64,000 nucleotides of DNA from Escherichia coli (GTDB lineage Bacteria; Pseudomonadota; Gammaproteobacteria; Enterobacterales; Enterobacteriaceae), in the NCBI RefSeq assembly GCF_017348835.2, contig NZ_CP071375.1. One strand, given 5' to 3'. Numbering within the stretch: the first letter of the stretch is position 1; the number at the start of each line of letters is the position of its first letter. Below the pieces are notes generated by a model. That model was given only the letters and a program-made list of their open reading frames with translations. It was not told where the DNA came from and ran no database searches. Shown here one piece after another: positions 4,759 to 5,116 of this stretch. The translations under genes were made by a program, and so were the position numbers.

Positions 4759-4939
4759 TCAATATTCCTTTTCAACTGACTCAAAATGGAGAAATACACT
4801 CCGCCGCCTTATGACGGGCAGTCTGACAAGGGTAAACAATAAAGCATAATTTTGCCAAATAGATCACAGATTTCTCATCTGCATCACCTTGCTTTTGGCG
4901 AAAAAAAGACCCGCAGAGCGGGGCTCAGACAGATATCAA

Positions 4940-5060
4940 TGTGCGCTTTGTCATGCCGGATGCGGCGTGAACGCCTTATCCGGCCTACAAAAACCTGCGA
5001 ATTCAATATATTGCAGGATACGTGTAGGCCTGATAAGCGTAGCGCATCAGGCAATTTTTC
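4940..5060. repeat. REP/BIME palindromic units
   Basis: gccggatgcggcgtgaacgccttatccggcctaca and inverted partner ...taggcctgataagcgtagcgcatcaggc. Confidence 0.8.
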
Positions 5061-5116
5061 TTTTGGCAAAAAAAAGACCCGCAGAGCGGGCCTTGAGATA
5101 AGCAGAAAGGAATGAC

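Follow-up and report, generated by a model that had tools for sequence, protein, structure and literature searches.

Our analysis of a 64,000-nucleotide stretch of Escherichia coli DNA (contig NZ_CP071375.1 of assembly GCF_017348835.2, hereafter the window) indicates that the two terminator-like motifs flanking the REP palindromes between fbaA and mscS are in all probability copies of one ancestral fbaA-mscS terminator, duplicated around the insertion of a BIME-1 element, with the fbaA-side copy (T2) acting as the main terminator, the mscS-side copy (T1) as a back-up, and the resulting 168-bp period being unstable. In K-12, RNA 3' ends lie at the U-tracts of both copies. The locus is polymorphic: filled sites carry the terminator twice and empty sites once, the ancestral spacer had a single terminator, the period is lost in some lineages and doubled in another, and the copies exchange sequence. 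Our inference is that the insertion step itself produced the duplication.

The two copies, at 4889-4925 and 5057-5093, form the sole direct-repeat family in 4760-5120. They are 37 nt long, identical at 34/37 positions (92%), and separated by 168 bp from start to start. In a local alignment of one flank against the other the repeat scored above 100 of 100 shuffles in one run and 200 of 200 in another. The original prediction had described near-identical 31-nt strings bracketing the REP units; these map to 4893-4923 and 5061-5091, the full repeat being slightly longer. Since the repeat outscored every shuffle, and since the REP palindromes between its copies are confirmed both by inverted repeats (I1, I2 and I5) and by Rfam matches (naRNA4/REP and ES036), this observation was correct. 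The motif is not a dispersed repeat, as a search of E. coli genomes with a 64-nt query made of T1 and its adjoining sequence returned one site per genome. Over the mscS-fbaA region the window and E. coli strain PE164 share 100% identity, and the open reading frames of the window place pgk upstream of fbaA. In the order in which fbaA transcription would meet them, the features are as follows (a strand is given where one applies).

5117-6196, minus strand: fbaA coding sequence, class II fructose-bisphosphate aldolase, with its stop codon at 5117-5119 (open reading frame list, translation, RefSeq annotation of PE164 and K-12)
5057-5093, minus strand: T2, the proximal terminator copy (repeat search, terminator scan, fold, K-12 Term-seq)
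5054-5067, minus strand: T2-z1 junction (15-locus alignment; sequences)
5024-5053: z1 REP, a palindromic unit (inverted repeats I1 and I5; the same unit shared by the 15 aligned BIME-1 loci; definition in PMC3333891)
4989-5023: L linker, 35 nt (Rfam ES036/CssrF match at 4989-5031, 42.5 bits against a gathering score of 37.6)
4954-4988: y REP, a palindromic unit (inverted repeat I2; Rfam naRNA4/REP match at 4950-4985; alignment)
4925-4953: y-side BIME-1 flank motif, TCAGACAGATATCAATGTGCGCTTTGTCA here, with the other-strand consensus ATGAACAAAGCGCACTTTGTCAACAATCTGA (next to y in 13 of 15 independent loci)
4889-4925, minus strand: T1, the distal terminator copy, immediately before the conserved region that precedes mscS (repeat search, terminator scan, fold; Term-seq end of the K-12 homologue)
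4889-5056: the 168-bp period of terminator copy plus BIME-1 (missing in the short allele, present twice in Escherichia sp. E1V33)
4759-4888, minus strand: mscS upstream region (TCTGTGATCTATTTGGCAAAA, TTATTGTTTACCCTTGTCAG), kept across Enterobacteriaceae as seen in outgroup spacer sequences, and presumably containing the mscS promoter and 5' untranslated region
3883-4758, minus strand: mscS coding sequence, 291 aa (open reading frame list, RefSeq annotation)

Terminator hairpins and RNA 3' ends

Each copy had been predicted to read on the minus strand as a hairpin followed by a T-run, and the terminator scan indeed calls both: on the transcribed strand T1 and T2 each present a GC-rich stem-loop followed by a U-tract, as expected of intrinsic terminators. 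T2 begins 22 nt past the fbaA stop. Its stem (5094-5074, AAGGCCCGC/GCGGGUCUU) has 9 pairs and a UCU loop and is followed by TTTTTTGCCA, the U8 tract corresponding to the plus-strand A-run at 5068-5075; the fold reaches -17.7 kcal/mol with a z score of -3.4 in a 62-nt context, and -13.8 kcal/mol for the hairpin alone. The core stem of T1 (4922-4910: CCCGC-UCU-GCGGG, 5 pairs in the terminator scan, then TCTTTTTTTC; also given as UCUUUUUUU) is followed by a U7 tract that corresponds to the A-run at 4901-4907. To its 5 GC pairs are added 3 more past a C.U mismatch, and the hairpin alone has a folding energy of -9.6 kcal/mol.

Do both copies end transcripts? Strain K-12 MG1655 has the homologous long allele, that is, the allele with the 168-bp period (mscS at 3068947-3069807, fbaA at 3070165-3071244), and its 3' ends can be taken from the curated Term-seq data of Adams et al. 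2021 (eLife; PMC7815308, Supplementary file 1), which cover three conditions. At an optical density (OD) of 0.4 the T2 end is at 3070119 (-) and listed as 'primary, fbaA' both in LB (160,555 reads) and in M63 (120,854 reads), with T1 listed in neither. In LB at OD 2.0 the T2 end, again 'primary, fbaA', is at 3070118 (-) with 54,607 reads, and in this condition only there is a T1 end, at 3069950 (-) with 44,902 reads, classed as 'orphan' (PMC7815308). Mapped on the MG1655 sequence, 3070119 and 3070118 fall on the fifth and sixth U of the K-12 T2 tract (U7), and 3069950 on the final U of the K-12 T1 tract (U6), so that the T2 and T1 ends are exactly 168 nt apart, which is the repeat period. The original prediction had proposed tandem terminators for the fbaA transcript and had suggested Term-seq or a comparison with the K-12 fbaA-mscS region as a check. 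Because the U-tracts of both copies carry 3' ends in K-12, this proposal is supported, with the T1 end listed only in stationary phase. The prediction did not extend to the probable BIME-1 insertion behind the duplication or to the polymorphism of the site. For the strain of the window, tandem termination is plausible but weaker; T1 would presumably still terminate here, and the T1 ends would come from polymerases that have read through T2.

One might instead assign the T1 3' end to a separate small RNA starting in or after the BIME, or to a stable decay or processing product shielded by the REP and the hairpins, in which case T1 would not be a back-up for fbaA. This we consider improbable, though it deserves some weight. 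The end at 3069950 is an orphan, seen at OD 2.0 only, with a signal 82% as strong as that of T2, and both exponential-phase lists lack it; moreover, REP structures stabilise upstream RNA (PMC3333891). However, the T1 end coincides with the final U of a canonical hairpin plus U6, just as at T2, and scanning the minus strand from T2 to T1 turned up nothing resembling a promoter. Even an RNA of independent origin would still be terminated at T1.

The T1 of the window is a rare variant, found at 99% identity or more in 16 genomes only. The common K-12-type T1, present in 3,622 genomes, differs from T2 by one A fewer and by a paired change from G.U to C-G, and has the stem CCCCGC/GCGGGG with -11.6 kcal/mol. 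In the window, the first 34 nt of T1 equal the terminator of the short allele (and also the T2 of K-12), after which the sequence switches to the K-12 T1 end. At the level of the RNA the 5' arm is K-12-T1-like while the 3' arm is ancestral or T2-like, and it is this combination that accounts for the C.U mismatch. On the simplest reading the window T1 is a chimera, probably formed when a long allele recombined, or underwent gene conversion, within the hairpin, its partner being a short allele or else T2. In E. whittamii, by comparison, decay has left the distal hairpin, some 130 nt before mscS, at -3.4 kcal/mol (GGCCGCCAGGAUAGAGGGGAUUUUUU), with the U-tract and tail kept.

The BIME-1 element and the origin of the second terminator

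The REP pair between the two terminators is a BIME-1 (RIP/RIB), consisting of a y REP, an L linker with an IHF-type site, a z1 REP and one flank motif. To compare it with its relatives, we scanned metagenome contigs for the linker core TGCAATATATTGAATT, which is common to all BIME-1 loci collected, and aligned the roughly 30 usable copies, which represent 15 distinct loci. The y and z1 units of the window lie in inverted orientation and are identical or near-identical to those of the 14 other loci. The predicted IHF-type site ATTCAATATATTG fits WATCAANNNNTTR at 12/13 positions, and IHF binding of the L linker has been described (PMC3333891). On the strand opposite fbaA the linker is also matched, at 4989-5031, by Rfam family ES036 (CssrF 'sRNA', 43 nt), which appears to be a model of the BIME-1 linker repeat rather than of a unique gene. 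Across the whole 64-kb window, Rfam at the gathering threshold gave no second BIME-1.

In the alignment the conserved element is longer than z1-L-y, with about 25 nt (TGAGACTGATGACAAACGCAAAACT) before z1 and about 31 nt (ATGAACAAAGCGCACTTTGTCAACAATCTGA) after y, the two flank motifs, which correspond to the A and B motifs of Gilson et al., being inverted repeats of each other. At fbaA-mscS the 25-nt motif on the z1 side, or left side, is missing except for its last bases; some 21 nt are absent, the T2 tail stands in their place, and the element measures 131 nt as against about 152 nt elsewhere. Could the 30-37-nt terminator motif (GACCCGCAGAGCGGG) then simply be a conserved part of the REP or BIME consensus with no origin at this locus, as the original prediction allowed for? 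There is a resemblance: the K-12 T2 tail and junction GCCAAAAGCAAAATT (...UUUUUUUCGCCAAAAGCAAAAUU) agree at 12/15 positions with the final 15 nt of that flank motif (GACAAACGCAAAACT), and the window tail GCCAAAAGAAAAATT agrees at 11/15. But the motif with its adjoining sequence occurs in a single place per genome, the short allele and the genome labelled 'E69' have the same terminator without any BIME, and the 14 other BIME-1 loci are flanked by different hairpins, each specific to its own locus. Since the motif is thus specific to fbaA-mscS, we regard a consensus origin as very nearly ruled out.

What did the locus look like before the element arrived? An MscS query against one genome per GTDB species returned 80 loci, with E. 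albertii, E. fergusonii and Salmonella not among them. We kept the 56 loci with fbaA directly upstream of mscS and excluded the other 24, in which a LysR-type or some other gene takes the place of fbaA ahead of the best MscS match, which points to a paralogue or a different gene order. Of the 56, 52 belong to non-Escherichia species (Citrobacter, Klebsiella, Enterobacter, Kluyvera, Kosakonia, Buttiauxella and others), and in these 52 no fbaA-mscS spacer contains a REP core. In 50 of the 52 species, 158-218 bp (mostly 174-192 bp) separate the stop of fbaA from the start of mscS; the spacers of the remaining two, of 405 and 494 bp, are larger and unrelated. All six spacers of the 158-218-bp class that we inspected have a single hairpin with a U-run about 25 nt past the stop, followed by the conserved mscS upstream region. 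As the spacers of the 52 outgroup species lack a REP core and those inspected have one terminator, the 168-bp unit of BIME-1 plus second terminator is derived. The comparison of spacers shows a single terminator to be the ancestral state of fbaA-mscS, with the BIME and the second terminator derived together.

Within Escherichia one, two or three terminators are found. The E. coli GTDB representative and the outgroup-like 'strain E69' have a spacer of 190-191 bp with one terminator; E. whittamii has a 361-bp spacer with the long allele and the same BIME junctions; and in Escherichia sp. E1V33 the spacer measures 527 bp and includes three terminators and two tandem BIME-1, the 168-bp period being present twice. 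For E. coli itself we compared positions 4700-5180 (481 nt) with 5,426 complete genomes. The full-length 481-nt match is present in 3,725 of these, and in the others the match is 313 bp, exactly 168 bp shorter; the T1-BIME junction occurs in 3,774/5,426 genomes, once in each. The period is thus missing in about 30% of E. coli genomes. When aligned, the short allele proves to contain a single terminator without a BIME, the T1 flank lying on its mscS side and the T2 flank on its fbaA side. There is one BIME-1 per locus in the window and in E. coli genomes, and two only in E1V33; a query built on the middle junction of E1V33 found no three-terminator allele in E. coli, although this is a weak test in which pieces of the two-copy allele were joined, and its usable outcome is that the top-ranking match was never a full-length one in a single piece.

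The direction of change inside E. coli can be read in two ways. The long allele could be ancestral within the species, the short one being a precise and possibly repeated 168-bp deletion by recombination or slippage between the 37-bp repeats. Direct repeats around a palindrome favour deletion, the long allele has identical junctions in E. coli, E. whittamii and Escherichia sp. E1V33, and a window-type long allele differs from the short allele of SW4848 by the 168-bp unit and by flank-matching single-nucleotide polymorphisms only. However, the terminator of the short allele carries T2 or ancestral-type bases only, so that deletion from a K-12-type long allele, as present in 3,622 genomes, needs a crossover within the first 12 nt of the repeat, and the short state is also that of the outgroup-like 'E69' and of the E. 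coli GTDB representative. We lean against such a deletion origin while taking it as a serious possibility. It concerns polarity inside E. coli only and is compatible with an older insertion.

For the insertion itself we propose the following course of events. In an Escherichia ancestor a BIME-1, made up of z1, L with its IHF site, y and a flank motif, would have settled just downstream of the fbaA terminator, leaving a 37-bp direct target duplication (hairpin, U-tract and CGCCAAAAGCAA) with one copy on each side. T2 would be the ancestral terminator, still standing where it always had with respect to fbaA, and the main Rho-independent terminator of the pgk-fbaA transcript. T1 would retain the original place just upstream of the mscS promoter region and would catch polymerases that pass T2 and the BIME. 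The 168-bp period would then destabilise the site, leading to its loss in about 30% of E. coli genomes, to its doubling in another Escherichia lineage, and to exchange of sequence between the copies. In this scheme the duplication at fbaA has a length of 37 bp because the U-tract and CGCCAAAAGCAA were duplicated along with the hairpin. Two variants may apply to the left junction: it may have formed through chance similarity between the terminator tail and the left motif of the BIME, or, after a canonical insertion, the distal copy may have converted a short stretch and so given the proximal hairpin back a U-tract.

Hairpin duplication at other BIME-1 loci

Is the duplication peculiar to fbaA-mscS? 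In 13 of the 15 aligned BIME-1 loci a strong GC hairpin abuts at least one end of the element, and in 6 of the 15 a significant direct repeat, specific to the locus and itself a hairpin, is present on both sides. We compared filled and empty alleles in E. coli genomes at five further loci, listed here with the length difference between the two alleles.

rutG-ymdF: empty allele with one hairpin CACCGCCGGTAAYCCCGGCGGT; filled allele with a hairpin on each side of a ~152-nt BIME-1; +174 bp; 1,733 filled genomes
metE-ysgA: empty allele with one CGGGTGGTAATACCACCCG in all E. coli; filled allele in a metagenome relative; +171 bp; 0 filled E. coli
srmB-yfiE: empty allele with one AATGCCGGGTTTAAGCCCGGCATT; filled allele with two copies; +177 bp; 2,525 filled genomes
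mog-satP: empty allele with one TCCCCCCGAGCGGGGGGA; filled allele with two copies; +173 bp; 467 filled genomes
glyA-yphH: empty allele with hairpin, TTTT and a sequence like the BIME right end; filled allele with the BIME right after the hairpin and no duplication; +134 bp; 1,933 filled genomes

A duplicated target hairpin thus brackets the BIME-1 in 5 of 6 loci, fbaA-mscS included, with one copy in the empty allele. Between strains the whole BIME-1 is either present or exactly absent at fbaA-mscS, rutG-ymdF, srmB-yfiE, mog-satP and glyA-yphH. The duplications do not have the fixed length of a transposase-type target duplication: their lengths of about 18, 19, 22 and 24 bp track the length of the hairpin, with 37 bp at fbaA-mscS. 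At rutG-ymdF, metE-ysgA, srmB-yfiE and mog-satP the genes are convergent and there is one hairpin with a U-run per direction, whereas fbaA-mscS has two complete terminators in series. We also considered a fold-back origin of the flanking hairpins, that is, an inverted duplication, and rejected it: the two copies agree in the orientation of their loops and, at fbaA, of the U-tract as well.

Some of these loci have peculiarities of their own. At srmB-yfiE the left hairpin copy, which has no U-run, shows a series from G-C through G.T to A-T between contigs (CCGGG/CCCGG, CCGGG/CCTGG, CCAGG/CCTGG), and since these changes look compensatory they suggest that this copy is under structural selection. 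At glyA-yphH the hairpin of the empty allele is followed by TTTT and CAACAGATTAA, which is similar to the right-end motif of BIME-1, and this allele may be the remnant of an imprecise excision. At glpD-yzgL and rhlE-ybiA a hairpin abuts the z1-side end only; these two loci were dropped from the comparison, as each has several divergent E. coli alleles and no clean empty allele among them.

More generally, then, the establishment of a BIME-1 could duplicate the whole adjoining terminator hairpin, with the length set by the hairpin rather than by an enzyme-fixed stagger. From the alleles compared here we advance this only tentatively, and would not yet bet on it. If true, it implies that the insertion step reads DNA structure. 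How might this happen? One model would have both strands of the palindromic target nicked at the same-side foot of the hairpin, followed by fill-in, a candidate being a hairpin-binding nuclease such as the REP-associated Y1 transposase. In a second model, a template switch during replication would lead the nascent strand to copy the hairpin and then the BIME before re-entering at the other foot of the folded template hairpin. Either model would fit a duplication of hairpin length.

Several observations weigh against the account with which we began. The 3' ends are known from K-12 only, and the T1 stem of the present strain is weak: in its 62-nt context the z score is +0.8, and the canonical hairpin is absent from the minimum-free-energy fold. 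Even in K-12 the T1 end is listed only at OD 2.0, and it could stem from processing or from a separate transcript. The long allele occurs with identical junctions in three Escherichia species, and therefore the short alleles of E. coli may be precise secondary deletions rather than retained empty sites. The BIME-1 site at glyA-yphH shows no hairpin duplication. Finally, fbaA is itself atypical, with 37 bp duplicated as against 18-24 bp of hairpin alone elsewhere and about 21 nt of the left motif missing, and therefore a secondary conversion or a homology-guided junction may be involved.

Two observations lie outside the fbaA-mscS spacer. MscS has 291 aa in the window and 286 aa, ending in ...KEDKAA, in K-12, and the DNA past the stop differs too (window 3883-3915); this differing mscS 3' end may mark a recombination breakpoint. 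The other Rfam matches at the gathering threshold are, in order, an ALIL pseudoknot, which is an IS3-type frameshift signal (53892-54008, plus strand), EFASI (55111-55262, minus) and STAXI (55699-55885, minus), and further matches are STnc490 (57586-57709, minus), a tRNA (49433-49505, plus) and a second REP/naRNA4 site (37443-37513, minus). The tRNA followed by the ALIL, EFASI and STAXI matches may mark an inserted element.

Relation to known systems and meaning

BIME-1, also described as RIP or RIB, was characterised by Gilson 1991, Boccard & Prentki 1993 and Oppenheim 1993, as summarised by Ton-Hoang et al. 2012 (PMC3333891). The element at fbaA-mscS conforms to that description in its inverted z1 and y REPs, its long L linker with an IHF site, its single copy and its position at the 3' end of a transcription unit. 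It departs from it in that the left motif is largely missing and that two complete terminators, not hairpin copies alone, bracket the element; the tandem doubling of element plus terminator in Escherichia sp. E1V33 likewise departs from the description of BIME-1 as single-copy. Bachellier et al. (1997, Genetics 145:551) reportedly described 'excisions of a whole BIME-1' and its presence or absence in natural E. coli isolates at six loci.

T1 and T2 resemble tandem Rho-independent terminators elsewhere, being two hairpin and U-tract signals in series on the same strand with K-12 3' ends at both. Unlike the usual tandem pairs, they are paralogues spaced 168 bp from each other around a REP pair and would derive from one event of insertion and duplication; the second is weaker, its end being listed in stationary phase only. 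Taken together with its flank motifs, BIME-1 is an imperfect palindrome of about 152 nt with inverted ends (AGAYTGWTGACAAA) flanked by direct target repeats, much like MITEs and other small non-autonomous elements with terminal inverted repeats and target-site duplications; unlike in these, however, the duplication varies in length (18, 19, 22, 24 and 37 bp), in step with the target hairpin. A further likeness is to class C bacterial group II introns, which according to Robart et al. (2007) reportedly insert just after intrinsic terminator hairpins: BIME-1, too, prefers the foot of a terminator stem-loop. BIME-1 differs from these introns in having neither intron nor reverse transcriptase, and in that its sites carry a duplicated hairpin.

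Much of this is already known, namely BIME-1 itself, its IHF site, its 3'-end position, its presence/absence polymorphism and the existence of tandem terminators, and both K-12 ends are in a published table. Our literature search returned nothing that combines fbaA, mscS and terminator. On duplicated hairpins at BIME-1 boundaries, or on a doubled fbaA terminator around its BIME-1, we found no statement in PMC3333891, PMC2817692, PMC3184786, PMC3337134, PMC8049555 or PMC8266576, the likeliest place for one being the BIME literature of the 1990s, which lay outside the search.

The locus in itself is an ordinary regulatory feature and the result for it a modest one: it explains why two look-alike terminators stand at the end of a highly expressed glycolytic operon and shows which copy is the original. 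The strength of T1 varies between strains, which matters when read-through into mscS is modelled or when this 3' untranslated region is used as a part. The insertion footprint is possibly more informative. The mechanism by which REP sequences are disseminated 'remains to be elucidated' (Corneloup et al. 2021, PMC8266576), and transposases of the IS200/IS605 family, the relatives of RAYT, make no target duplication (PMC3333891). For this reason a hairpin footprint, if not described before, constrains models of REP and BIME dissemination. It also suggests a target for assays, namely a terminator hairpin placed beside a selectable read-through reporter. If the proposal holds, a duplication of hairpin length would be a concrete and testable footprint of the spread of REP and BIME sequences, with the side effect that terminators are kept on both sides of the new element.

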